Sequence record: OZ035812.1
Length of the DNA stretch: 42,973 bases
Strand: one strand, 5' to 3'
Origin: Kagunavirus LM08P1
In this document: in pieces, positions 3,084 to 37,834 of the stretch
Layout: each line of letters begins with the position of its first letter
Numbering within the stretch: position 1 is the stretch's first letter
Made by a program: the position numbers and the translations under genes
Notes under the pieces: generated by a model
What the model was told of the DNA's origin: nothing
Database searches by the model: none
The model's input: only the letters and a program-made list of their open reading frames with translations

Positions 3084-3106
3084 TTTTAACCTCCTGTTTA
3101 AGTTAA

Positions 3107-3139
3107 CTGAATAGTACCCTATTATATTGGTGTCTGCAA
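3107..3139 (-). promoter_or_regulatory. sigma70-like promoter with palindromic operator-like core (family 1), minus-directed
   Basis: Minus strand reads TTGCAG-N17-TACTAT with TATAATAGGG inside spacer; core TGAATAG-N4-CTATT inverted repeat; sits 24 nt upstream of minus gene start 3083. Confidence 0.55.
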
Positions 3140-4688: not shown

Positions 4689-4691
4689 TAA

Positions 4692-4720
4692 GAGGCCCCA
4701 TAATGGGGCCTTAGATTTTT
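4692..4720 (+). terminator. intrinsic terminator hairpin
   Basis: GGCCCCA-TAA-TGGGGCC hairpin followed by T-rich run TTAGATTTTT. Confidence 0.55.
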
Positions 4721-5025
4721 CCTATTAGATTTTTAATTCTGTCGCGTTCTATTCTTTTCCCTTCTTCTACTCCCTCATTGAAGTATCTTTCTACATCATC
4801 CTTATTGACCTTACGAACTGCTGCGCCCTCTTTATATAGCTCTTGATTGTCGCGCAATACCTTAATCTTAGCGATTATTTCATTAAAAGGTGCGTCAGCA
4901 CGTATTTTGAGCATAGACCTTACCTGTTCTACGAACCATGCAAAATTAGGCTTTTTTGATAATTTCTCTCTTAAAACAGCGTTCTCTTGTTCCGCTTTTG
5001 TGGCGCGAGCACGATAATCAATCAT
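4711..5025 (-). CDS. hypothetical protein (opposite-strand, AT-rich gene in head module)
   Basis: 104 aa ORF on minus strand, lysine/glutamate rich; ATG at 5025; promoter element at 5063..5095; visibly more AT-rich than flanking structural genes. Confidence 0.55.
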   Translation of the reverse strand: MIDYRARATKAEQENAVLREKLSKKPNFAWFVEQVRSMLKIRADAPFNEIIAKIKVLRDNQELYKEGAAVRKVNKDDVERYFNEGVEEGKRIERDRIKNLIGKI

Positions 5026-5062
5026 TTTAGCAAACCTCTATCTTCATTAAACAGCACCAATA

Positions 5063-5095
5063 ACTGAATAGTACCCTATTATATCGGGGCATGTA
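5063..5095 (-). promoter_or_regulatory. sigma70-like promoter with palindromic operator-like core (family 1), minus-directed
   Basis: Minus strand reads TTACAT-N17-TACTAT with TATAATAGGG in spacer; nearly identical to elements at 3107, 14187, 36341, 37776. Confidence 0.55.
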
Positions 5096-5111: not shown

Positions 5112-5162
5112 ATTCCAGTTATTCCACTCAATTGTAAATGTTGGAATAAACTATTCGAATAG
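5112..5162 (+). promoter_or_regulatory. cluster of GGAAT/ATTCC motifs and 12-bp palindrome CTATTCGAATAG immediately upstream of promoter
   Basis: ATTCC at 5112 and 5121, GGAAT at 5143, perfect palindrome CTATTCGAATAG 5151..5162 abutting the -35 hexamer at 5163. Confidence 0.35.
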
Positions 5163-5191
5163 TTGACTTTTCACTAAAAATGTGCTAAGCT
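5163..5191 (+). promoter_or_regulatory. sigma70-like promoter (TTGACT-N17-TAAGCT, extended -10 TG) driving structured RNA element A
   Basis: -35 TTGACT 5163..5168, 17-nt spacer, -10 TAAGCT 5186..5191 with TG two nt upstream; same hexamers and spacing at 36032..36060 while spacer sequence differs. Confidence 0.55.
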
Positions 5192-5197
5192 CCACCT

Positions 5198-5397
5198 GAG
5201 CTTGTGAAGTATGAACAAGCGACCGCGGCGCGGGCAGGTAACGGAGCGGGACGTAAGTCCTGAGTGTAGTTACGCTGACGCGTTCGGAAGGGCCATACTC
5301 TATTGCTTGTGTAAAAAGTAACTGGTTTACTGAGATTACGCCGTTTCTATGTTTAAATGATAAGGACTAGCGCCCCGCTTTATGGCGGGGCTTTACT
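5198..5397 (+). ncRNA. candidate structured noncoding RNA / leader element, copy A (unidentified family)
   Basis: About 200 nt between promoter and terminator hairpin (5371..5391 + T-run); shares conserved blocks with copy B (36067..36300) with hairpin-preserving substitutions; no reading frame conserved between copies. Confidence 0.5.
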
Positions 5398-5415
5398 TAT
5401 CGAGAAAGGAGAAAC

Positions 5416-5802
5416 ATGAATCTTAAAGCAACTGTCGTAGCAGGAGCATGTTTCATCATCCTGTTATACACGCACGGCTACTATCAATACCGCAGCGGCT
5501 GGAACGGAGGCAGGGCTAATCTAGTTTCGCAGCAACAGCAGAAAGCACAGGCTGAGTTAGCGAAGAAAACACAACGGCAGCAGCAGGACGAATCAAAGGC
5601 CGCCGCCGCTGACAACGAAGGCAAGACGAAATCAGAGGTGATTACCCGTGAAGTCGTTAAGTACATTAAAACGCCTGGCCGCAGCGTGTGCACTTTCGAC
5701 GATGCTCGCGTCCTGCTCAAGTCCCGCGCCGTCGCAAACGCCAATTCCATCCCCGGATACGACGATGATGCAGCCGCCGTGCAAACTGGCTCCGCCAAGT
5801 AG
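5416..5802 (+). CDS. putative inner-membrane spanin (Rz-like)
   Basis: 128 aa; N-terminal hydrophobic helix (VVAGACFIILLY), Q/K/A-rich predicted coiled region; contains overlapping out-of-frame lipoprotein ORF, the classic Rz/Rz1 architecture. Confidence 0.5.
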   Translation: MNLKATVVAGACFIILLYTHGYYQYRSGWNGGRANLVSQQQQKAQAELAKKTQRQQQDESKAAAADNEGKTKSEVITREVVKYIKTPGRSVCTFDDARVLLKSRAVANANSIPGYDDDAAAVQTGSAK

Positions 5803-5911
5803 CGACGCCGACGAGGATTTAGCTATCGACGTTCAGAACGCCGAATGCGTACGGCAACTGCGCCTGAAGGTGTTCATGTTGCAGGATTACGTGAGGAATA
5901 TTCTGGAATAG
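5648..5911 (+). CDS. putative outer-membrane lipoprotein spanin (Rz1-like), overlapping in +1 frame
   Basis: GTG start with RBS GAGGTGA; signal peptide ending in lipobox LASC; proline-rich mature region (SPAPSQTPIPSPD...QPPCKLAPP); starts inside 5416..5802 in a different frame and extends beyond it. Confidence 0.5.
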   Translation: MKSLSTLKRLAAACALSTMLASCSSPAPSQTPIPSPDTTMMQPPCKLAPPSSDADEDLAIDVQNAECVRQLRLKVFMLQDYVRNILE

Positions 5912-5993
5912 TTGCCTTGCATGTTGGAATAATTTATTCTTGACATGTAAATCCGGGTGGCCCGGATTCCAACGTCCAGGGGACATACTGACT

Positions 5994-6695
5994 ATGAATC
6001 GTTTTTTACGTTATCCGTTCCAGGAAGAAGCTGGAACAGAAGATAAATCCGGTGGCGGTGACGCGCCGAAAATGTTCACCGCTGAAGAAGTTCAGGCGCT
6101 GATTGAGAAAGAAGTTGCCGGGCTTAAGGCTAATCAGGAAGCATTGCTGGCAGAGAAGAAAGAAGCCGCCCGTAAAGCAAAAGAGGCTGAAGAAGAACGG
6201 CAGCGCGCGCACCAGGAGGCATTAAAAGCCGCCGGTAAGATGGACGAGTTCGAAAAAACGATTCGTAGCCAGTATGACCCGGTGTTAGCCGAGAAAGATG
6301 GCCGCATCTCCAGAATGGCGGAGCGCATCCTCGGCAGCGAACGTAAAGCGGTGTTAGGCTCTTTCGCAGGTGATTTCATCACACCGGAAGCAGTAGACAT
6401 TCTTGCTCCGTTCGTTAAGACTGAGTTCGAAGGCGATGACGTGGTTACTAAGTTTGTAGGCGCAGACGGCAATGTAATCACGACTGACCCGGAACAGTTC
6501 CGCAAATACCTGCGGGAACACAAAGCATTTTCGCATTTGATTAAAGCAAATGCAGCTTCCGGCGGCGGGGCTTCCGGTAGCAAAGGCGGCGGGGCCGCAC
6601 CAGCGTTTAAAGACATGAGTGAAGCGGAGCGTTTAGCTCTGTATAAATCGAACCCTGCCGAATTTGAACGGCAACTTAAAGCCCTGAGGAAATAA
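5994..6695 (+). CDS. scaffolding protein
   Basis: ORF frame opens at 5940 (TTG); first ATG at 5994; highly charged K/E/A-rich predicted coiled coil; directly precedes major capsid gene. Confidence 0.55.
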   Translation: MNRFLRYPFQEEAGTEDKSGGGDAPKMFTAEEVQALIEKEVAGLKANQEALLAEKKEAARKAKEAEEERQRAHQEALKAAGKMDEFEKTIRSQYDPVLAEKDGRISRMAERILGSERKAVLGSFAGDFITPEAVDILAPFVKTEFEGDDVVTKFVGADGNVITTDPEQFRKYLREHKAFSHLIKANAASGGGASGSKGGGAAPAFKDMSEAERLALYKSNPAEFERQLKALRK

Positions 6696-6697
6696 TA

Positions 6698-7747
6698 ATG
6701 GCAATTACCACTATCGGCGATATCGTAACTGGCAACATCCCGGTCCTGGCGTCTTATATGACCGAGGACCCGGTAGAAAAAACCGCGTTCTTCCAGTCTG
6801 GTATTCTGACCCCGACTCCATACGCTGCCGAGATTGCCCGCGGCCCGTCCAACGTCGCTAATATTCCTTTCTGGAAAGCGATTGATACTTCTATCGAGCC
6901 TAACTACTCGAACGACGTATACCAGGACATCGCCACCCCGCGTAACGTGCAGACCGGCGAGATGATGGCCCGCGTTGCATACCTGAACGAAGGCTTCGGA
7001 CAGGCGGACCTGACTGTCGAACTGACCAGCCAGAACCCGCTGCAATCCGTAGCGTCCCGTCTGGACAACTTCTGGCAGCGCCAGGCACAACGCCGTCTGA
7101 TTGCTACCGCGCTTGGTCTGTACAACGACAACGTAGCCGCTACCGACGCTTACCACGAGCAGAATGACATGGTAATCGACGTGTCTGCTACTCTGGGCTT
7201 CGATGCGGGCGCGTTCATCGACGCTACCCAGACTATGGGTGATGCGCTGATTGGCAACGGCGGTGAAGTGCTGGGTGCTATCGCGATGCACAGCTTCGTA
7301 TATGCGCAGGCCCGTAAGCAGCAGCTTATTGACTTCATCCGTGACGCTGACAACAACACCATGTTTGCCACCTACCAGGGCTACCGCGTGATTGTTGATG
7401 ACAGCATGACTGTAGTTGGCACCGGCTCAAGCCGTAAGTTCATCTCCATCATCTTCGGTAACGGCGCTATCGGTTACGGTGAAGGTAACCCGTCCAACCC
7501 GCTGGAATACGAGCGCGAAGCGTCTCGCGGTAACGGTGGTGGTGTCGAAACCCTGTGGACCCGTAAGACCTGGTTGCTGCACCCACTGGGCTACAGCTTC
7601 ACCAGCGCGGTAATCACCGGTAACGGCACCGAGACTATCGCACGTTCTGCTTCCTGGCAGGACCTGGCGAACGCCTCCAACTGGAACCGTGTGGTTGAAC
7701 GTAAGCACGTACCGATTGCCTTCCTGGTAACTGGTGTAGGTGCTTAA
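6698..7747 (+). CDS. major capsid protein
   Basis: 349 aa ORF with RBS GAGGAA; follows scaffold; followed by strong terminator; codon usage typical of highly expressed structural gene. Fold not verifiable here. Confidence 0.7.
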   Translation: MAITTIGDIVTGNIPVLASYMTEDPVEKTAFFQSGILTPTPYAAEIARGPSNVANIPFWKAIDTSIEPNYSNDVYQDIATPRNVQTGEMMARVAYLNEGFGQADLTVELTSQNPLQSVASRLDNFWQRQAQRRLIATALGLYNDNVAATDAYHEQNDMVIDVSATLGFDAGAFIDATQTMGDALIGNGGEVLGAIAMHSFVYAQARKQQLIDFIRDADNNTMFATYQGYRVIVDDSMTVVGTGSSRKFISIIFGNGAIGYGEGNPSNPLEYEREASRGNGGGVETLWTRKTWLLHPLGYSFTSAVITGNGTETIARSASWQDLANASNWNRVVERKHVPIAFLVTGVGA

Positions 7748-7763
7748 GGTTAAGCTATAATCG

Positions 7764-7790
7764 AGAGGGACTTCGGTCCCTCTTTTCATT
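7764..7790 (+). terminator. intrinsic terminator
   Basis: GAGGGAC-TTCG-GTCCCTC hairpin followed by TTTTCATTT, 17 nt after capsid stop. Confidence 0.65.
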
Positions 7791-7806
7791 TACTAAGAGG
7801 TAAATT

Positions 7807-8106
7807 ATGGCCAAGACCGGAAAAGGCTTGCCGCGCAGCCTTCAGAATGTCGATTTCGGCGACTTTGATATCCCTGTCACACCTGCTACTACCAGCGTAG
7901 TTGGTGGGGTTAAAAAGTCAGCTACCGTAGCTGCACCCGCGGCCATTACCGCTGGTGCAGGGGTGCAGTCCGCCGCGGCTCCAACTAAGGAAGAGTTCGA
8001 CGCCCTTGTAGCGGAGTACAACAAACTCCGAACTGATGTTACCGCGCTGCGCACTACCGTAGCAAATCTGTTGACTGCGCTTAAAAACGCAGGAACCGTA
8101 AGCTAA
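7807..8106 (+). CDS. hypothetical head-associated protein
   Basis: 99 aa, Ala-rich, RBS AGAGG; located between capsid and Ig-like decoration-type protein. Confidence 0.5.
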   Translation: MAKTGKGLPRSLQNVDFGDFDIPVTPATTSVVGGVKKSATVAAPAAITAGAGVQSAAAPTKEEFDALVAEYNKLRTDVTALRTTVANLLTALKNAGTVS

Positions 8107-8118
8107 AGGAGCTTAAAA

Positions 8119-8472
8119 ATGGTTGATGTAATCAAACGTCGCATTACCGGTGTTTCTGACGACTCCCCGGCTGATGGTCAGGTAGAAATCGATATGGCAA
8201 ATATTGCCCCTGCATCTTTTTCCACACCACTCGGGGCGACTACCGCTGTTAGTGCGCCCGCCGCATTGACTCTTACCGTTGAGGCAACCGGCGGGATGAC
8301 ACCTTACTCCTACCAGTGGTACAAGAACAACAACGCTATTGCGGGCGCTACTGCAGCCACATACACCAAAGCCACCACTGTCGCGTCTGTCGATTCTGGC
8401 ACGTATAAAGTGGTTGTTCACGATGCCTATGGTAATATTATTTCTAGCAGCACCGTAGCAACTGTGTCTTAA
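8119..8472 (+). CDS. Ig-like domain protein (candidate capsid decoration)
   Basis: 117 aa; segment LTLTVEATGGMTPYSYQWYKNNNAIAG...SGTYKVVVHDAYGN resembles Ig-like/Big-type domain; RBS AAGGAG. Confidence 0.5.
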   Translation: MVDVIKRRITGVSDDSPADGQVEIDMANIAPASFSTPLGATTAVSAPAALTLTVEATGGMTPYSYQWYKNNNAIAGATAATYTKATTVASVDSGTYKVVVHDAYGNIISSSTVATVS

Positions 8473-8508
8473 TACAACGGCCCTTCGGGGCCGTAATAAG
8501 GAAAGGTC

Positions 8509-8688
8509 ATGGCAGATAATTATGTAATCCGCGAAAAGTACACCCACGTTGATGTTGTTGACGGTCAGGTGATGCCCGTTCGCGGTGTTGTAGAACCGGA
8601 TGAGCTTGTGGCAACGCAACCAGATAACGAAGAAGCGCACAACAACGGCGGTGGTACTAAACGTCGTCGCCGTAAGTCAGAGGAATAA
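8509..8688 (+). CDS. small hypothetical protein (59 aa, basic C-terminus)
   Basis: ATG 8509 preceded by AAGGAAAGG; ends KRRRRKSEE; below the 60 aa cutoff of the ORF track, found by manual reading. Confidence 0.4.
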   Translation: MADNYVIREKYTHVDVVDGQVMPVRGVVEPDELVATQPDNEEAHNNGGGTKRRRRKSEE

Positions 8689-8691
8689 TTT

Positions 8692-9204
8692 ATGCCTCTA
8701 ATCGTGGAAACGGGTGAAATCGTCCCTAATGCTGACAGTTACGTTAGTCTGGCTGACGCCCGCGCGTTAGCGGCTAATTATGGCCTGGAGTTGCCCGCGG
8801 ATGATACCGCCGCAGAGGTGGCCTTGCGTAATGGTGCAACGTATGTTGGGTTAGCAGAACCCCAGATGTGCGGTCGTCGTGTATCTGCCGAACAGTCACT
8901 GGCATATCCTCGCACTGGTGTAACGTTGAATGGTTTCCCAGTAGCTAACAATGTCATTCCGAAACAGGTAATTCTTGCGCAGGTAATCTCTGCCGTTACG
9001 TATGGTGAGGGTACTGAGGTGCGGGCCAACTCCGATGGGCGTTTGGTACAGACCGAGCGCGTAGAGGCCACAGTAACCGTCACCTACTTCAACAACGGCA
9101 ACAGCGGTGCCACGACCGCGATTACCGCTGCGGATGACGCCTTACGCCCGTTACTGTGCGGCGGTCTTAACAATGGCTTCTCGTTTAATGTGCGCCGGGG
9201 GTAA
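8692..9204 (+). CDS. head-tail adaptor / connector protein (putative)
   Basis: 170 aa; position after head genes; N-terminal motif SYVSLADARA recalled from head-tail joining proteins; RBS GAGGAA. Confidence 0.45.
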   Translation: MPLIVETGEIVPNADSYVSLADARALAANYGLELPADDTAAEVALRNGATYVGLAEPQMCGRRVSAEQSLAYPRTGVTLNGFPVANNVIPKQVILAQVISAVTYGEGTEVRANSDGRLVQTERVEATVTVTYFNNGNSGATTAITAADDALRPLLCGGLNNGFSFNVRRG

Positions 9205-9206
9205 AA

Positions 9207-9821
9207 ATGGCGAAGACTAAAACAGAGATGTTTACTCTTATCGGTGCAAATCTCCCCGATAATACCACTGGACTTATTACCCCCGCAGCGTTGCGCGAGG
9301 TAATGACACAGATGGCTGACTCGCCTATCTATGCCACTCCGGGGGTTAAAGAGGTTGAAGTTCTCCGTGCCGCGTCGACAGTAGCACAAGCACCATCCGC
9401 AGTGGACACAGCATTGCAAATAACTTTCGGTGCTGCCCAGGGAAGCGCGTCTAACCCGGTAATGATTAATGCTGCAGGGCTGGTTACATTCAACGCCGCG
9501 GGTAACTACGCCGTTCGCATCAAGTTACAGGCGGGGCGTACGGGTGCTAGTGGGACATCAATCCTTTTATCACGCATTCTTCTTAACGGCGCTCAGTACG
9601 GCTCACCCGCGGCCACGAAACTGGTAAGCGCGGATATTACAATCCCGATTGAATCCCGCGTCGTTATTAACCCCACCGCAGGCCAGACGTTTGCCGTTCA
9701 GATTATGCGGGATAGCGCCGGAAGCAACTACGGTGGCGTATACCCGCAAGCGGCTACTGTAACCGCATGGGGTACAGCACCATCCGCATTACTGGTTATC
9801 TCGAGACTGGAGGCAGCGTAA
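9207..9821 (+). CDS. neck/structural protein (putative)
   Basis: 204 aa ORF tightly packed in structural operon. Confidence 0.45.
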   Translation: MAKTKTEMFTLIGANLPDNTTGLITPAALREVMTQMADSPIYATPGVKEVEVLRAASTVAQAPSAVDTALQITFGAAQGSASNPVMINAAGLVTFNAAGNYAVRIKLQAGRTGASGTSILLSRILLNGAQYGSPAATKLVSADITIPIESRVVINPTAGQTFAVQIMRDSAGSNYGGVYPQAATVTAWGTAPSALLVISRLEAA

Positions 9822-10180
9822 TGAGCACCGCTTTCAGTAAACGTATGCAAGGCGTTGGTACACGCCTTCTAACCAAATTCGGTAGCACGGTATCTCTGAT
9901 TCGCGCCGGCTCGAAAGTGTGGGATGAAGTTCTCGGCGAGTACGTCTGGTCCGACGATGAAGTGTTGCCGTTGAAAGCTGTTCCGGTTCCGGTAAACGCG
10001 GGCCTGGTGAACGGTACGACGATTCAGGCTGGCGACATGATTGTTAAAGCCGATTACAGCGTCGTTCCTAAGATGGAAGACAAGGTACAATTCGGCGGCG
10101 AGCAATGGTCGGTTGTGGCTATCGAGAAGAAGATGGTTAACGATGATGTCGTGGCATACTTTATTCAGGTGAGAAAATGA
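9821..10180 (+). CDS. head closure / tail completion protein (putative)
   Basis: ORF frame 9767..10180; likely start ATG 9821 after GGAGG, overlapping previous stop (TAATG). Confidence 0.45.
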   Translation: MSTAFSKRMQGVGTRLLTKFGSTVSLIRAGSKVWDEVLGEYVWSDDEVLPLKAVPVPVNAGLVNGTTIQAGDMIVKADYSVVPKMEDKVQFGGEQWSVVAIEKKMVNDDVVAYFIQVRK

Positions 10181-10572
10181 GTTTCGCGCTTGATGTCTCT
10201 AAGTTCGTGGAAAAAGCGAAGAAGAACCCCGAGAAGGTGATGCGTCAGGTGTCTATCAAGCTGTTTTCCGCTATTATAAAGGCGACGCCAGTTGATACCG
10301 GTCGTGCGAGAAATAATTGGTTTGCGTCTGGCAGTACTCCGTCACAGGAAACTACCACCTACGGTGCACCGCAAGGAACGGCTACCATACAGCGTGTTAC
10401 TGCGGTTATAAACACCGCTACAGACTGGAGTGAGTTCACGCTGACAAATAACCTGCCGTATATACAGCGGCTGGAGTATGGCTGGTCACAACAGGCGCCA
10501 GCTGGGGTTGTCAGGACTAATGTGTCTCGCTTCCAGCAACTCATTAACGAAGAAGCCAACAAGGTGAAATGA
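10177..10572 (+). CDS. neck protein (putative, HK97 gp10-like by position)
   Basis: 131 aa; overlapping start/stop with neighbours; positional inference. Confidence 0.45.
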   Translation: MSFALDVSKFVEKAKKNPEKVMRQVSIKLFSAIIKATPVDTGRARNNWFASGSTPSQETTTYGAPQGTATIQRVTAVINTATDWSEFTLTNNLPYIQRLEYGWSQQAPAGVVRTNVSRFQQLINEEANKVK

Positions 10573-10985
10573 TGGGCTACTTTGAGGACTTAACCAAAGC
10601 GTTCGATGTGCCGCTGGTAGCCTTCGGAACCGCCAACGGCATCAAGGTTGCGCTTGAAAACATCGACGCGCCGACATCAACCGATACGCCGTATCTGGCG
10701 AGTTACATGTTGCTGGCGGATACGGAACAGGCTGATTTGTTCTTCACGGAACAACGCGCCGGTGTTTATCAGGTCGACATTAACTACGCATCGGTGAAAG
10801 GTAGCGCGCCAATCAATAAAATGGCAGACTTACTTAACACGGCGTTTAAAGCAGGTAAGTCATTTTCACGTAACGACATCTGCGCCGAGGTTCAATCGGT
10901 AAGCCTGGGGCCGCTGATTGTAGAAAACGGATGGGCCAAAAGACCATTGTCAATTAACTTTATTGCATTCACCAAGAGGCTGTGA
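10569..10985 (+). CDS. tail terminator / completion protein (putative)
   Basis: 138 aa immediately upstream of major tail protein; positional inference. Confidence 0.45.
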   Translation: MMGYFEDLTKAFDVPLVAFGTANGIKVALENIDAPTSTDTPYLASYMLLADTEQADLFFTEQRAGVYQVDINYASVKGSAPINKMADLLNTAFKAGKSFSRNDICAEVQSVSLGPLIVENGWAKRPLSINFIAFTKRL

Positions 10986-10987
10986 AT

Positions 10988-12154
10988 ATGGCTACAACTC
11001 CTTTTAAGGGCGCGAATACCGCGCAATTCTATGTGGCGGAAGTCACCCCGGGCGTAACACCGACTAACCCGGTATGGTCGCCGTTGCGTAACACAGGTGG
11101 CGTTCCCGCTATCACCCGCGACACGCTGACATCCAACGAACTGGACGGCAGCCGTGAAACTACATCCATCCGCACCGGTAACAAACAGGTTAGCGGTGAA
11201 TACGCGATCGAGCTTAGCTCTAAAAGCCAGGACGACTGGCTGGCGGGCGCTTTAGGTTCCACGTGGCAATCAGGTGTCTCTCTGTCAGGGCTGTCGATTA
11301 CCGTCGCGCCTGCAGGTAAGACATTTACACGCTCCACCGGTAGCTTTATTTCTGACGGCGTTGAAGTAGGCGACCTGATTGCGTTTACCGACTTAACCGG
11401 CGACAACGCAAAACCATTTATCGTCACTGCGGTAGAGGCACTGGTAGTGACCGGTGCGGGCATCCAGCACACTCTCACCACAGAGACCGCTACTACTGCT
11501 GCTAAGACAGGCGACAAACTGGAAACCGGTAGCCAGTGCAAGACGTTCTCTATTCTCACCTGGTACAAAGGCCAGTGCGGCGGGACTGACGCATACACGT
11601 TAACCAAAGGCGTGGAAGTTTCTGGTTTTACCGTTGAGCAGGCCGTTAACGCGATGGTAACGGGCAGCTTCCCGTTCATCGGGCGCAGCCAGGAGATTCT
11701 CACTACGCCACCGTCTGGTTCTGACTTCTCCTCTGTTACGTTTGGTGACGAGCCGTTCTCCTCGGTCGACGTTTCCGTGTTCGATGGCTCTACGCCGTTG
11801 CGTTGCGACAGCCTGACCATCACCAACGATAACAGCGCGTCCGCACAGTTCGAACTCGGCAACTCTAACGTTGCGTTTGTGGAGCGTAGCCGCGCGGCTA
11901 ACACCTTCTCCATCTCAGGCAAGCTGTATGACATGGCTATGATTCAGAAGTTTATCAACGAGCAGCAGGTAGAGATTAACTCTATTCTGGCGGGGGTAAA
12001 CGGAGCTATGTCTTTCAGCCTGAAACGCGCAGAGCTCACGGCGGTTACACCAGAAATATCCGGCCCGGAATCAATTACCCAAAGTATAGAAGGGCAGTCC
12101 ACAGGCAACCAATACCAGTCGTCTATCGTAATTCAACGTATTAGTTACGCATAA
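10988..12154 (+). CDS. major tail protein
   Basis: ORF frame from 10982 (GTG); ATG at 10988 with RBS AAGAGG; about 389 aa, T/S/G-rich; sits between neck genes and chaperone/tape-measure pair. Confidence 0.6.
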   Translation: MATTPFKGANTAQFYVAEVTPGVTPTNPVWSPLRNTGGVPAITRDTLTSNELDGSRETTSIRTGNKQVSGEYAIELSSKSQDDWLAGALGSTWQSGVSLSGLSITVAPAGKTFTRSTGSFISDGVEVGDLIAFTDLTGDNAKPFIVTAVEALVVTGAGIQHTLTTETATTAAKTGDKLETGSQCKTFSILTWYKGQCGGTDAYTLTKGVEVSGFTVEQAVNAMVTGSFPFIGRSQEILTTPPSGSDFSSVTFGDEPFSSVDVSVFDGSTPLRCDSLTITNDNSASAQFELGNSNVAFVERSRAANTFSISGKLYDMAMIQKFINEQQVEINSILAGVNGAMSFSLKRAELTAVTPEISGPESITQSIEGQSTGNQYQSSIVIQRISYA

Positions 12155-12156
12155 AA

Positions 12157-12184
12157 CTAAGGCCCCTTTCGGGGCCTTTTTCTT
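12157..12184. terminator. bidirectional intrinsic terminator
   Basis: AAGGCCCC-TTTC-GGGGCCTT hairpin with A-run upstream and T-run downstream; separates + major tail gene from - island; almost identical to terminator at 24206. Confidence 0.65.
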
Positions 12185-14162: not shown

Positions 14163-14186
14163 AATTATTTCCTCAGTAAGTTACAG

Positions 14187-14220
14187 GTGAATAGTACCCT
14201 ATTATATTGGGGTGTGCAAG
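14187..14220 (-). promoter_or_regulatory. sigma70-like promoter with palindromic operator-like core (family 1), minus-directed
   Basis: Minus strand reads TTGCAC-N17-TACTAT with TATAATAGGG in spacer; 31 of 33 positions identical to plus-strand element at 36341..36373. Confidence 0.55.
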
Positions 14221-22238: not shown

Positions 22239-24203
22239 ATGTCAAGCGGATGCGGTGACGTTTTAAGCCTGGCGGATTTACAAACCGCCAAGAAACACCA
22301 GATTTTTGAGGCTGAAGTAATTACCGGCAAATCCGGCGGAGTTGCTGGCGGCACTAATATCGACTACGCAACTAACCCGGTTACGCTGCAAACGCAGAAG
22401 ACAATGCCTGCTATTCTGCGCGACATCGGCTTTCAGCCAGCATCATTCGACTTCACTTCTGGGGGGACACTCACCACAGACGACCGAAACAAGGCTGTGT
22501 TGTGGCCTTTGGCCGATGGTGGTGATGGGGATTGGTATTACTGGGAGGGCGCGCTGCCGAAGGTTATCCCAGCGGCATCAACTCCGGCGTCTACTGGTGG
22601 TGTTGCCGAAGGTGCCTGGAGGCCTGTGGGGGATATTACGTTACGCAGAGAACTAGCTAGTACTAACGGAGCCCAGGCTATTGGTACCTTATCGGGCGGT
22701 AGCGTACAAGATGAATTAACTAAGCTACCCTTAACGTATATCGCCCAGCAAAAATCACCTATTACCATCACAGTAGGGCCTTCTGGTGATTTTTCAACTA
22801 TCAATGACGCGATAACTAGCGTGGCGAAGTATCAGTATGTCCTCGCTTCGGGTAATACTGGTATCCGTATCACCCTGTTAAGCGGTTTTTTGATGGAAGA
22901 ACAGGTCATTGTCGACTTTTTAAATCTTTCGTTTATAGAAATATACTCAACGTCGGTTGTGCATATATCTCGCGCGGCGCTTACAACCGCGGTTGAGGGG
23001 TACTACCCTGCCTTTTGCGCAAAAAATTCAGCGGTCCTACCAAAGATAAACGCCTCTTTTGATATGGGTTGGACCTCCGGGGCTCAAGACCAATCTGTGG
23101 CATTTCTGGCCTACGGAGCTGGGTCCGCAATATCTATTGCAAGCGGTAAAGGATGTATTAGGAGTTACGGGTTCGGCATTCTAGCGTCTAATGGCGCTAT
23201 GTTCAGCGCCGACGGTACTGTGTGGGACGATTGCGCCGGTGATGGGGTTTCTGTGTACGCAGGAGGCTCAGGCTCCGCTAAAAACGCAACGGCAAACCGT
23301 TGCTACAATGGGTTCGTTGCGAATGGTGGCGTACTTGATGCCACAAGCTCTGTTGCGAAAGGAACCAGAAGTGCTGGCTTTGCGGCCAGAAAATCTGGGG
23401 TGCTGAACGCTGAATTTGCGGATGCGCAAAACGGGGTAACGTACGGCTTCTATTCCGCGGTAAGTTCGATGCTAAACGCTACCCGTGGTAACTGTAGCGG
23501 TTGCCGGTTTGGCATATCTGCGCAGAGAAGCTCAAAAGTCGCAGCGGAAGAGGTTACAGCTGATAATTGCCTGGAAACGAATATATCAGCCCGCAGGTAC
23601 TCAGAGATTGAGGCACAAAGCTGTCATGCCGTAAACACCACTACGACTCCGCTCTACTGTATTCGCGCCAACTATTCAGGGTCGGTTGTTGTTGAGTCCG
23701 GAACTATAGGCGGGGCTTGCACACATAATATTTGCCGGGCGACCACCAACGCAGAGATACAAGCTACCGATACTAAGATGTCAGGGGCGATAGGTACATC
23801 GATTGCGGTCTTCGTTGACGAGTCGTCAAACTTTAACGGACGCAGGATGAACCTGAACCATTCAACCTCGGAGGGGACCGCAGTTCATGTTCTCCGGGGG
23901 AGCACTGCGGACATTAGCGATAGTACTATAGTTGCGGGTAATAACTATGGGGTGGTGTCCCAGTATTGCGCTAACGTAGCTGCGGATAACGCGAAAGTGA
24001 ACGGCTCTTCGGATTATAGTGTATACGCTACCGACGGCGGGAAAATATCAGTAACTAACAGTAATGTCAGGCGCGACAACTCGACAGACCAAAATACGGA
24101 CATTGTAATATCTCGTGGTGGTATTATTTCGGCATTTGGTGCATTAGGCGGCGTAAACACAACAGTTAACGCTGTATCTGAAAAAGGCATAATCTTCAAA
24201 TAA
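22239..24203 (+). CDS. tailspike / receptor-binding protein with probable beta-helix (possible depolymerase)
   Basis: 654 aa, last gene of tail module; G/S/N/A-rich repetitive segments typical of right-handed beta-helix proteins; function inferred. Confidence 0.5.
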   Translation: MSSGCGDVLSLADLQTAKKHQIFEAEVITGKSGGVAGGTNIDYATNPVTLQTQKTMPAILRDIGFQPASFDFTSGGTLTTDDRNKAVLWPLADGGDGDWYYWEGALPKVIPAASTPASTGGVAEGAWRPVGDITLRRELASTNGAQAIGTLSGGSVQDELTKLPLTYIAQQKSPITITVGPSGDFSTINDAITSVAKYQYVLASGNTGIRITLLSGFLMEEQVIVDFLNLSFIEIYSTSVVHISRAALTTAVEGYYPAFCAKNSAVLPKINASFDMGWTSGAQDQSVAFLAYGAGSAISIASGKGCIRSYGFGILASNGAMFSADGTVWDDCAGDGVSVYAGGSGSAKNATANRCYNGFVANGGVLDATSSVAKGTRSAGFAARKSGVLNAEFADAQNGVTYGFYSAVSSMLNATRGNCSGCRFGISAQRSSKVAAEEVTADNCLETNISARRYSEIEAQSCHAVNTTTTPLYCIRANYSGSVVVESGTIGGACTHNICRATTNAEIQATDTKMSGAIGTSIAVFVDESSNFNGRRMNLNHSTSEGTAVHVLRGSTADISDSTIVAGNNYGVVSQYCANVAADNAKVNGSSDYSVYATDGGKISVTNSNVRRDNSTDQNTDIVISRGGIISAFGALGGVNTTVNAVSEKGIIFK

Positions 24204-24205
24204 AA

Positions 24206-24232
24206 CTAAGGCCCCATTTGGGGCCTTTTCTC
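24206..24232. terminator. bidirectional intrinsic terminator
   Basis: AAGGCCCC-ATTT-GGGGCCTT hairpin with T-run; lies between convergent tail (+) and replication (-) blocks. Confidence 0.65.
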
Positions 24233-24369
24233 TACTCTTCTGATAACTTCTCAAGTACAAACGCCAGTTGTGCGTTAGCGGCATCTCTTTGCTGCCGTAG
24301 GCGTAGAACCTCCTCCTCAAGTTCCTTGATACGTTTTTGCAATGCCGGAATCGGGGCTATGATGTTCAT
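24232..24369 (-). CDS. small hypothetical protein (45 aa, predicted helical)
   Basis: Found manually; ATG 24369 overlaps helicase stop (ATGA) with AGGAG upstream; sequence MNIIAPIPALQKRIKELEEEVLRLRQQ... Confidence 0.3.
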   Translation of the reverse strand: MNIIAPIPALQKRIKELEEEVLRLRQQRDAANAQLAFVLEKLSEE

Positions 24370-29228: not shown

Positions 29229-29252
29229 GTAAAAAGGCCCAATAAAGGGCCT
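29229..29252 (-). terminator. intrinsic terminator / attenuator hairpin between DUF2815-like gene and polymerase
   Basis: On minus strand AGGCCC-TTTATT-GGGCCT followed by TTTTT, upstream of polymerase RBS. Confidence 0.4.
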
Positions 29253-29272
29253 TAATTAAACAGATTCAGATA

Positions 29273-32861: not shown

Positions 32862-32890
32862 AATTAATATGGTACTATTCACATATAAAC
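32862..32890 (+). promoter_or_regulatory. candidate plus-directed promoter/operator upstream of HTH regulator gene
   Basis: TAATATGG-TACTATTCA resembles family-1 core (TACTAT -10) but -35 is weak; 20 nt upstream of RBS AAGGAG of 32910..33125. Confidence 0.35.
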
Positions 32891-36031: not shown

Positions 36032-36060
36032 TTGACTTTTACTTAAAAATATGCTAAGCT
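36032..36060 (+). promoter_or_regulatory. sigma70-like promoter (TTGACT-N17-TAAGCT, extended -10 TG) driving structured RNA element B
   Basis: Hexamers identical to 5163..5191 with same spacing but diverged spacer. Confidence 0.55.
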
Positions 36061-36066
36061 TCACTG

Positions 36067-36300
36067 AGCTTGTGAGATATCGCAAGCGACCGCGGAGCGG
36101 CAGGGAACGCAACGCGTGCCATTAGGCACTTGAGTGTAGTTCCGCTGGCGCTTTCGGAAGGGCCAAAGTCTATTGTTAATCCCGCCTAAATACCCAAGTC
36201 ACTGATAATTAAAAGTTTCTATAGTTGCCGTAAGCAAGGTGGAGAGTACTTCACTCCGCTGGGGTGGGCTAACGCCCACCCACTGCGTTGCGTACTCTTT
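36067..36300 (+). ncRNA. candidate structured noncoding RNA / leader element, copy B (unidentified family)
   Basis: Shares conserved sequence blocks with copy A; compensatory hairpin differences; ends in long hairpin (36242..36296) followed by CTTTT; no conserved ORF. Confidence 0.5.
36242..36300 (+). terminator. terminator-like long hairpin closing RNA element B
   Basis: GAGAGTAC...GTGGGC-TAAC-GCCCAC...GTACTCT followed by TTTTAAG. Confidence 0.45.
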
Positions 36301-36340
36301 TAAGAAACGAAAGAATCACAACGGCAACGTAACTTTTCTC

Positions 36341-36373
36341 TTGCACACCCCAACATAATAGGATACTATTCAC
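36341..36373 (+). promoter_or_regulatory. sigma70-like promoter with palindromic operator-like core (family 1), plus-directed
   Basis: TTGCAC-N17-TACTAT with CATAATAGG in spacer; 22 nt upstream of RBS GAGGAGTGAGGG of 36395. Confidence 0.55.
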
Positions 36374-36394
36374 TTATAGAAACGAGACAGAGGA

Positions 36395-37775: not shown

Positions 37776-37808
37776 CTTGCACACACAGATATAATAGACT
37801 ACTATTCA
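37776..37808 (+). promoter_or_regulatory. sigma70-like promoter with palindromic operator-like core (family 1), plus-directed
   Basis: TTGCAC 37777..37782, 17-nt spacer containing TATAATAG, -10 TACTAT 37800..37805; upstream of ATG 37835. Confidence 0.55.
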
Positions 37809-37834
37809 GTTATCGAAACGAGAGGAGAGAGAAG

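Follow-up and report, generated by a model that had tools for sequence, protein, structure and literature searches.

The RNA antiterminator put of phages was described in the 1990s. In phage HK022, put RNA acts in cis and without a phage protein via the zinc-binding domain of the RNA polymerase β′ subunit, thereby suppressing pausing and termination (PMC9378689). Here, we analyzed a structured RNA element that occurs in two copies, A and B, in the genome of Kagunavirus LM08P1 (sequence record OZ035812.1; the whole 42,973-nucleotide (nt) stretch is referred to as the window). The RNA structure is real and defines a covariation-supported family that neither Rfam nor the literature searched contains. 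Its sequence, its fold and the phage group that hosts it are new; its kind, a promoter-proximal phage leader RNA, possibly an antiterminator, is already known.

The layout resembles that of putL/putR from HK022 (also found in HK639, HK75 and phiEt88). Both RNAs are promoter-proximal, with putL starting from +3 and the element from approximately +1. Like put, the element contains two adjacent hairpins (P1 and P2) beginning at predicted positions +1 to +3, it is present in two paralogous copies that each stand ahead of a terminator-containing operon, and no dedicated antiterminator protein is recognizable in the genome. Unlike put, the core measures ~110 nt instead of ~70 nt, and the host is a virulent siphovirus of the Guernseyvirinae and not a lambdoid temperate phage, with no PL/PR repressor-controlled setting. 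Thus, the likeness to putL/putR put forward in an earlier sequence-only reading of this DNA holds for the arrangement, two paralogous modules in front of long terminator-containing blocks, but not for membership in the put family.

Other systems are similar in part. The Kagunavirus version, and only this one, resembles the Q-dependent pR′-6S RNA-tR′ module of phage lambda in having a promoter, a leader of ~175 nt and a terminator directly before the late genes. As at lambda pR′, the leader amounts to ~200 nt with its terminator included, and late expression therefore depends on readthrough. Unlike in the lambda Q module, the conserved determinant is a covarying RNA structure and not a DNA element bound by Q; unlike at lambda pR′, the −10-like repeat TGAGCT lacks the critical A at position 2, and the terminator of the relatives has no U tract. 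As in lambda N/nut and rrn boxA systems, a cis-acting RNA signal near the operon start would load a termination-resistant complex. With the T7 gene 10 leader and R sites the element has in common a hairpin at the 5′-end of the capsid-operon mRNA, a long irregular hairpin and paralogous copies. Unlike with T7-type stabilizers, copy B heads no mRNA directly, and the conservation of unpaired nucleotides is far stricter than needed.

Architecture and fold of the two copies

The two copies were 99-100% identical to those in the Kagunavirus genomes AV104, LM08P2 and vB-Eco-KMB36. The annotated genomes of AV104 and Sciku are those of virulent siphoviruses of ~43 kb from the subfamily Guernseyvirinae, and no RNA polymerase gene is annotated in either. 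Copy B heads the first of two rightward gene blocks, which leads from the early region (36395 onward) to the holin, endolysin, terminase, portal and head morphogenesis genes and closes at a terminator (4692-4712). After a short gap, copy A heads the second block (5416-12154) with the spanin, scaffold, major capsid, head and tail genes. Every feature listed in the sequence-only reading was found at its position, and the modules and their cores are composed as follows.

5163-5400, + strand: copy A module with promoter, ~110-nt core, linker and GC-rich hairpin.
36032-36300, + strand: copy B module with promoter, ~110-nt core, linker and GC-rich hairpin.
5200-5220, + strand: P1 of copy A, in which GCUUGU (5200-5205) pairs with ACAAGC (5215-5220) around a 9-nt loop in predicted folds.
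5223-5287, + strand: P2 of copy A in predicted folds, with a CCG/CGG base (C5226 bulged) followed by GGCGCG/CGCGUU.
Within 5223-5287, + strand: mid-stem of P2, CAG/CUG with G5274 bulged, then GUAAC/GUUAC.
5243-5246 and 5263-5268, + strand: conserved asymmetric internal loop of P2, GGAG opposite AGUGUA.
5247-5262, + strand: apical hairpin of P2, CGGGAC-GUAA-GUCCUG, variable between types.
5288-5305, + strand: single-stranded, conserved tail AAGGGCCAUACUCUAUUG, which together with the P2 3′-strand forms the near-invariant block GCnUUCGGAAGGGCC.
36064-36175, + strand: copy B core, matched by covariance model R1 of the element (see below) with 100.8 bits (E = 2e-24); fold z-score −3.2.
36068-36087, + strand: P1 of copy B, GCUUGUGA-GAUA-UCGCAAGC.
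36090-36157, + strand: P2 of copy B with apical hairpin GUGCC-AUUA-GGCAC (36116-36129).
36158-36175, + strand: tail of copy B.

The core thus consists of the 5′-terminal hairpin P1, the long irregular hairpin P2 and the invariant tail UUCGGAAGGGCC (AAGGGCC..UCUAUUG). The blocks of both copies follow each other in the same order, and their alignment runs from the −35 hexamer to CTATTG. P1 lies two nt from the predicted 5′-end in copies A and B, and 0-2 nt across all types; in copy B it gains two extra pairs through changed bases, and in the Jerseyvirus type (type J) the unrelated hairpin ACGCU-UUC-AGCGU takes the place of GCUUGU/ACAAGC. The closing stems of P2 are common to both copies (CCG/CGG and GGnGCG/CGCn′UU), and the n/n′ pair C5229-G5282 occurs as C-G, U-A and A-U in 19, 15 and 3 distinct sequences, respectively. 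The apical stem differs completely between the types and is yet always paired, and type J has UCGCG/CGCGA in place of CAG-GUAAC/GUUAC-G-CUG. Both hairpin exchanges claimed for the two copies, GGAC-GTAA-GTCC (5249-5260) against GTGCC-ATTA-GGCAC (36116-36129) and CTTGT..ACAAG against CTTGTGA-GATA-TCGCAAG, are present as described.

The tail is (near-)invariant in the Kagunavirus and Jerseyvirus types, with GGCCC and GAGGCCC as variants. Beside it, the unpaired invariant nucleotides are found in ACCGCGGnGCG, in GCnUUCGGAAGGGCC and in the internal loop GRAG/AGYGUAR, whereas the apical hairpin is free to vary; this combination suggests a conserved macromolecular partner. Two invariant G-U pairs identify the + strand transcript as the folded molecule. 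On inspection, neither a K-turn nor a sarcin-ricin nor a UAA/GAN motif gave a convincing fit to the internal loop.

Covariation and exchange between copies

Two pattern scans of IMG/VR gave 57 loci that fell into five sequence types (A, B, C, D and the Jerseyvirus type J) plus chimeras. Covariance model R1 was built for the element, and 66 matches (38 distinct, type J included) were aligned. In this alignment 94.6% of the cells were paired, in comparison to 28-42% with partners slid, and 16 of the 29 pairs had changed on both sides. The covariation score was 0.321 versus 0.115 in shuffles and was reached by none of 500 shuffles; these strongest covariation numbers come from an alignment that was fitted to the model and leans towards it, and from related sequences that are not independent. 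A structure-blind MAFFT alignment of 17 Kagunavirus variants likewise had 93.5% of the cells paired (30-42% with partners slid), with double changes in 5 pairs only, a number equalled in 190 of 500 shuffles. RNAalifold runs on full-length MAFFT alignments were hampered because P1 and the apical part were misaligned.

No reading frame was conserved among the variants when the homologs were searched for one, and indels of 1, 1 and 4 nt break the frames between the two copies. Together with the covariation this bears out the view that the conserved entity is an RNA structure and not a protein.

Some modules are chimeric: one at the A locus carries a D-type P2 (L034, 2218-2328), and one at the B locus has an A-type promoter spacer (L053, 1572-1860). 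They point to gene conversion or recombination between the two copies. As judged from these sequences, promoter and RNA are duplicated and exchanged as a single unit.

Distribution and conservation

Copy A was present in 178 of 180 phage records at 95-99% identity (E. coli, Salmonella, Shigella and Raoultella hosts), and it was located 5′ of spanin-scaffold-capsid in every Kagunavirus locus examined. Only ~40 of these 180 records contained B types, and most relatives carry copy A only. The copy B core was ~80% identical to copy A loci of other phages over 144 nt (E = 1e-21 to 1e-25). Type J was found at the same place, 5′ of spanin, in the Jerseyviruses examined (SGPC, BPS11Q3, and eleven IMG/VR and other contigs).

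When 21 distinct Kagunavirus loci were compared with the window, core and linker each had a mean identity of 98.9% and the segment with the terminal hairpin (tA) and the ribosome-binding site one of 96.9%, versus 91.9% for the spanin and 89.4% for the scaffold gene. The whole leader is thus under stronger constraint than the adjacent genes.

Outside phages, no match was obtained in 5,426 complete E. coli genomes at E ≤ 10. Among 100,044 species genomes scanned, 12 matches were due to chance and two were true; the latter sat on tiny contigs and probably reflect contamination by phage DNA.

At the B locus of phage K1G (L044, 36680-36990), a promoter TTGACA-16-TAAAAT and an unrelated leader replace the core. 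This leader holds an inverted copy of the tA hairpin, GCCCCGCCATAAAGCGGGGC, and rejoins the shared block at CACTGATAATTAAAAGTTTCTATAG...tB.

Six more distant members of the Guernseyvirinae (Pantoea phage AH01, TS6, VSiP, Shemara, St162 and PSDA-2) have a different, highly structured leader of ~300 nt at the same position, which has GGGAC...GUCCCUG-AAGCGA and CGGGGAUAGUCUAUU in common with the element; the fold z-score of the AH01 leader was −4.3. FSL SP-031, with yet another variant, gave a weak R1 match of 9.1 bits with a CGGAAGGGUC tail. This leader and the Cornellvirus-type leaders (loci L084, 2034-2330; L086-L090, ~150-450; L091, 292-384) may be remote relatives. Klebsiella phage vB_kpnM_D1, with only an early-region protein in common and different structural genes, was uninformative.

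Promoters

5163-5191, + strand: promoter P_A with TTGACT (5163-5168), a 17-nt spacer, TG (5183-5184) and TAAGCT (5186-5191); predicted start near G5198.
36032-36060, + strand: promoter P_B with TTGACT (36032-36037), a 17-nt spacer, TG and TAAGCT (36055-36060); predicted start near G36066.

The letters of the promoter proposed at 5163 in the sequence-only reading, TTGACT-N17-TAAGCT with an extended TG, are as given there, and its start site is a prediction. The 29-nt pattern TTGACTTTTnnnTAAAAATnTGCTAAGCT (TTGACT-17-TGnTAAGCT) occurs exactly twice in the window, versus 0.00 occurrences expected from shuffles, and the Jerseyvirus promoter has the same layout, T(T/A)GA(C/T)T-17-TGnTA(A/C)GCT. TAAGCT agrees with the consensus −10 element at 3 of 6 positions, with A−11 and T−7 kept, and a consensus promoter scanner flagged neither site. 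We therefore infer both promoters and their start sites (~5198 and ~36066) from the near-consensus −35 hexamer, the TG extension and the conservation of the layout in Jerseyviruses. The conserved block begins at the predicted +1 in copy A, copy B and the Jerseyvirus type. TGAGCT (5197-5202) echoes the TAAGCT of the promoter with a G at position 2; the Jerseyvirus repeat is exact (TACGCT-AAC-TACGCT). In the lambda Q module, a −10-like element in the initially transcribed region causes a sigma-dependent pause.

Directly adjoining the −35 hexamer of P_A, at 5151-5162, there is a perfect 12-bp palindrome, CTATTCGAATAG, which is kept in nearly all Kagunavirus copy A loci. It may be the binding site of a phage helix-turn-helix regulator, giving P_A temporal control. 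Its AATAG/CTATT half-sites are those of a second motif, TGAATAGTACCCTATTATAT, of which the window contains six copies (+ strand: 32865-32887, 36356-36378 and 37792-37814; − strand: 3104-3127, 5061-5084 and 14184-14207). In this motif, an inverted repeat AATAG-N4-CTATT overlaps a TATAAT/TACTAT −10-like hexamer, and each copy is located just 5′ of a gene start. The six copies are probably host-type early promoters with a built-in operator. The same motif was described as 'phage promoter' in fBC-Eco01 (PMC9825357), although no annotated RNA polymerase gene was seen in these phages.

Between the head morphogenesis block and P_A there is a gene (4711-5025, − strand) that has a six-fold motif copy of its own. 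Its 104-amino-acid product belongs to phrog_10768, which has a function-less label. The gene is missing from K1G and Sciku and therefore looks like an inserted accessory gene.

Linkers, terminal hairpins and terminators

5306-5369, + strand: copy A linker, A/U-rich, with block ACUGAGAUUACGCCGUUUCUAUG that is in part common to copy B.
5370-5400, + strand: hairpin tA, GCCCCGC-UUUAU-GGCGGGGC (5372-5391) followed by UUUACUUAU; 8-bp GC stem, −17.9 kcal/mol.
36176-36301, + strand: copy B linker and the long imperfect hairpin tB (36242-36299, −32.2 kcal/mol), followed by UUAAG.

Hairpin tA was flagged as terminator-like by a scanner and ends 15 nt 5′ of the ribosome-binding site of spanin (ATG at 5416); its variants show a compensatory CCCTGC/GCAGGG change. 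For tB the terminator scanner gave no flag. The proposal that both copies end in a terminator hairpin is therefore sound for copy A and less secure for copy B, in which the U run is mostly inside the stem. In Jerseyviruses, compensatory changes preserve the pre-spanin hairpin, which lacks a U tract (UUAGCGUAU), as does that of the Cornellvirus type; among these relatives, only Kagunavirus has a U tract behind it. Downstream of the copy B core, the hairpin is followed by a copy of the six-fold promoter-like motif directly ahead of the early genes.

The complementary 8-mers GTTGCCGT (36224-36231) and ACGGCAAC (36321-36328) flank tB. The C and D types have them as well, and the AH01 and Cornellvirus leaders contain them in the opposite order, where they pair into a simple hairpin. 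A larger closing helix or a protein-binding site is a possible role for the two 8-mers. Pairing of the tail with the terminator, or of the linker with the core, as part of a switch was dropped, as only short GC-rich complementarities without covariation were found.

No promoter other than P_A is visible for the spanin-scaffold-capsid operon, and no promoter-like site was seen between tA and the spanin ATG. Since the upstream block is, moreover, closed by a bidirectional terminator, transcripts of the late structural genes have to originate at P_A and extend past tA. Within the operon, directly 3′ of the major capsid gene, there is a further, strong intrinsic terminator at 7763-7784 (GAGAGGGAC-UUCG-GUCCCUCUU, then UUCAUUU; −15.5 kcal/mol). 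It precedes eleven further structural genes, with a weak 9/12 match at 10794 as the sole promoter-like site between. Other intrinsic terminators were found at 2774-2794 (after the portal gene), 4692-4712 and 12159. Near-identical bidirectional terminators of the form AAGGCCCC-loop-GGGGCCTT close gene blocks at 2772-2800, 4690-4718, 12156-12184, 24200-24240 and 29231-29259. The terminators at 7763-7784 and 2774-2794 are located inside gene blocks, so a readthrough device would have something to do there.

Comparison with known RNA and protein families

No Rfam 15 family matched anywhere in the window at gathering thresholds, and at E ≤ 10 none matched the core of copy A, copy B or the Jerseyvirus type; the matches that touched it were weak and at chance level (a eukaryotic microRNA, wcaG, and OrzO-P on the opposite strand). 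This agrees with the earlier failure to assign the element to an RNA family. ARAGORN found no tRNA or tmRNA, and a tRNA-like reading of UUCGGAAGGGCCA fails because the preceding bases pair with the 5′-strand of P2. Literature searches, including those by exact sequence strings, gave no description of the element.

For a direct comparison with put, HK022 putL was located by the residue numbering of the published work (PMC9378689) and combined with the annotated putL/putR of O276 and the putL-like RNA of HK639. The resulting model R2 comprised six put RNAs, three of them homologs found by BLAST, with the consensus CGAACGGCgCG ... stem II ... GgCAAU. It recovered HK022 putL and putR with 93.3 and 52.8 bits, respectively, and HK639 putL with 92.5 bits, and gave no match in the window, in Sciku or in SGPC; on either copy it reached ≤3.6 bits with filters off. 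Conversely, R1 had no match in HK022 at E ≤ 10. Membership in the put family was rejected, as the covariance models fail in both directions. A local likeness between CAGGAUGAACGG of put and CAGGUAACGG of the element was also discarded: the former is in a loop, the latter in a stem.

For boxA (GCUCUUUAACAA-like, ≤3 mismatches), 39 matches were counted versus 37.2 expected, and none of them was in either leader. The apical hairpin is not a boxB-like protein site, since it differs between the copies of the same phage. An RfaH ops element (GGCGGTAGCGTG) was considered after TAGCGT had been spotted by eye in some relatives; in the window, GAGTGTAG fits poorly, and the candidate was dropped. PHROGs scans of 30 small or regulatory proteins identified helix-turn-helix regulators and no member of the Q, N or other antiterminator families, so that a protein antiterminator of a known family was set aside among these 30, with room left for a novel protein.

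Cis-acting readthrough and the alternatives to it

Tentatively, and at somewhat less than even odds, we favor the view that the element is a leader RNA acting in cis, which would enable RNA polymerase to pass the hairpin or terminator next to the leader as well as internal terminators. The two forms that it may take, autonomous action as with put and dependence on a further factor, share this estimate about equally. The structure of the RNA, its conservation and position, and the terminators are established; beyond the folding of the RNA, we infer every step. A strong host-type (sigma-70) promoter would be fused to the ~110-nt leader, which would fold as it exits RNA polymerase and would act in cis on its own polymerase, alone like HK022 put or with a phage or host factor. 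The polymerase so modified would pass the GC-rich hairpin or terminator ~70 nt downstream and then the intrinsic terminators located within the operon. Copy A would thereby license transcription of the spanin-scaffold-capsid-head/tail operon, and copy B would send a termination-resistant polymerase via the early region to the lysis, terminase and portal genes. With a polymerase modifier acting in cis, the joint movement and recombination of promoter and RNA would make sense, as would invariant unpaired nucleotides next to an apical hairpin without such constraint. Of the models considered, only cis-acting readthrough fits both loci without added assumptions.

Several observations weigh against it. 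Phages without an antitermination system commonly have a terminator behind their capsid gene. The linker is conserved as strongly as the core, which a pure polymerase-loading model leaves unexplained. Behind copy B, a further promoter-like motif precedes the early genes, which weakens a simple combination of the element with the terminator next to it, and K1G has copy A only and no copy B core. Readthrough of the pre-spanin hairpin is not a function of the whole family, as the hairpin has no U tract in Jerseyvirus and Cornellvirus. Judged by the consensus, the promoter has a weak −10 hexamer, and the scanner did not flag it. Finally, there is neither homology to put nor a boxA, and the analogy to put comes from the layout. 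The only Kagunavirus transcriptome study found is resolved at the level of genes and places the capsid gene in the 'middle' class (PMC12645636).

The more specific proposal of a second, independently evolved class of RNA-only processive antiterminators, unrelated to put and driving the Guernseyvirinae late operon through the E. coli/Salmonella polymerase in cis, is unlikely.

The strongest alternative, a minor but real possibility, is a leader that controls mRNA stability, processing or translation: P1 and P2 would shield the abundant late mRNA from 5′-end-dependent decay or form an RNase III or RNase E site, and the final hairpin together with long-range pairing would tune spanin translation. 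A position at the 5′-end is classic for stabilizing hairpins (ompA and T7 gene 10 leaders), and in each of the types P1 begins within 0-2 nt of the predicted 5′-end. Such a role would also suit the conservation of the whole leader with its linker, and a final hairpin that outside Kagunavirus is kept as a structure without a U tract. For translation control speaks the 5′-end of the Cornellvirus-type leader, ACCUAACCACC, which is complementary to the Shine-Dalgarno sequence of spanin, GGGGUUGGG; in Kagunavirus, however, pairing of the 5′-end with the ribosome-binding site is weak and competes with the well-supported P1. At copy B, a plain stabilizing 5′-untranslated region makes little sense, because the hairpin and the promoter-like motif follow the core and most early mRNA would lack the element. 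Moreover, generic stabilizers need no invariant unpaired nucleotides common to paralogs and genera.

A stand-alone, trans-acting small RNA of ~195 nt (A) or ~230 nt (B), ended at tA or tB, is quite improbable. Such an RNA would act by binding or sequestering a component of the host or the phage, for instance in host takeover, as an anti-defense decoy or as a base-pairing regulator. The Kagunavirus copies indeed have the anatomy of a small RNA gene with promoter, structured body, A/U-rich stretch and hairpin, copy B looks independent in its location 5′ of a separate promoter-like motif, and copy number differs between phages as it does for accessory genes. At the A locus, however, the element is the only visible transcription route into essential late genes. 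A discrete terminated RNA is not the common product of the family, since the pre-spanin hairpin of Jerseyvirus and Cornellvirus has no U tract with which to release it, and tB is not a canonical terminator. The search for matches in E. coli was negative at E ≤ 10, in a database of a size that cannot report short complementarity.

For a riboswitch-like attenuator, with the core as an aptamer that recognizes a small molecule or tRNA-like ligand and thereby controls whether tA forms, the chances are very small. The conserved 5′-domain, the variable 3′-part and the terminator-like hairpin correspond to the general layout of transcriptional riboswitches, but the core consists of two hairpins without a multi-helix junction, a linker of ~65 nt separates it from the hairpin, and no Rfam aptamer matched even at E ≤ 10. 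Since tA, tB and the Jerseyvirus hairpin are unrelated while the core is invariant, a conserved antiterminator pairing is not possible.

No more credible is a transcript that primes DNA synthesis at a replication origin, as a primer or R-loop formed by a G-rich structured RNA from a strong promoter. Priming transcripts of that kind are known from the ColE1, T4 and T7 origins, and copy B is located in a divergent region adjoining the primase-helicase genes, with a G-rich transcript followed by an A/T-rich stretch; yet the universal copy is that of the capsid operon and not that beside the replication genes, K1G has no copy B, and nothing else at the A locus resembles an origin.

A small arginine-rich peptide encoded by the element (in copy A from an ATG, 5211-5321, 36 amino acids, MNKRPRRGQ...) has a negligible probability: the invariant AAGCGACCGCGG reads as KRPR behind an in-frame start in both copies (...RKRPRSGRER in copy B, same frame) and public records annotate open reading frames of this type over the element, but their length is 9, 19, 36 or 44 amino acids depending on the variant with unrelated sequence beyond KRPR, that frame lacks a start codon in the Jerseyvirus type, the start is not preceded by a Shine-Dalgarno sequence, and stem substitutions are compensatory and not synonymous. 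The open reading frames over the elements have only 20-39 codons, and none is common to both copies. Leader mini-open reading frames (AUU/UUG starts after GGAAGGG, and that of MNKRPRRG) were rejected, as neither frames nor lengths are conserved. Hypothetical proteins are annotated over the element on either strand (5211-5321; L043, 5621-5731 and 37531-37638; L083, 2233-2352; L045, 13851-14009). These annotations are probably spurious, because the 36-amino-acid frame shrinks to 9 amino acids with a 1-nt deletion and is absent in Jerseyvirus.

Implications for Guernseyvirinae

The Guernseyvirinae (Kagunavirus, Jerseyvirus and Cornellvirus) are among the most often isolated phages of E. coli and Salmonella, and their use in therapy and biocontrol has been widely proposed. 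For the capsid operon, the element provides the sole visible point of entry, and no stretch of that region is better conserved; it may bear on how these phages time and drive their late genes with the host polymerase alone. Even as a leader for stability or translation, it would represent a new covariation-supported RNA family at a place that is now annotated with small 'hypothetical proteins'. If the polymerase is modified by the RNA itself, the element would be only the second phage RNA antiterminator family known after put, and it would then provide a small, transferable module with which synthetic operons could be insulated against terminators.

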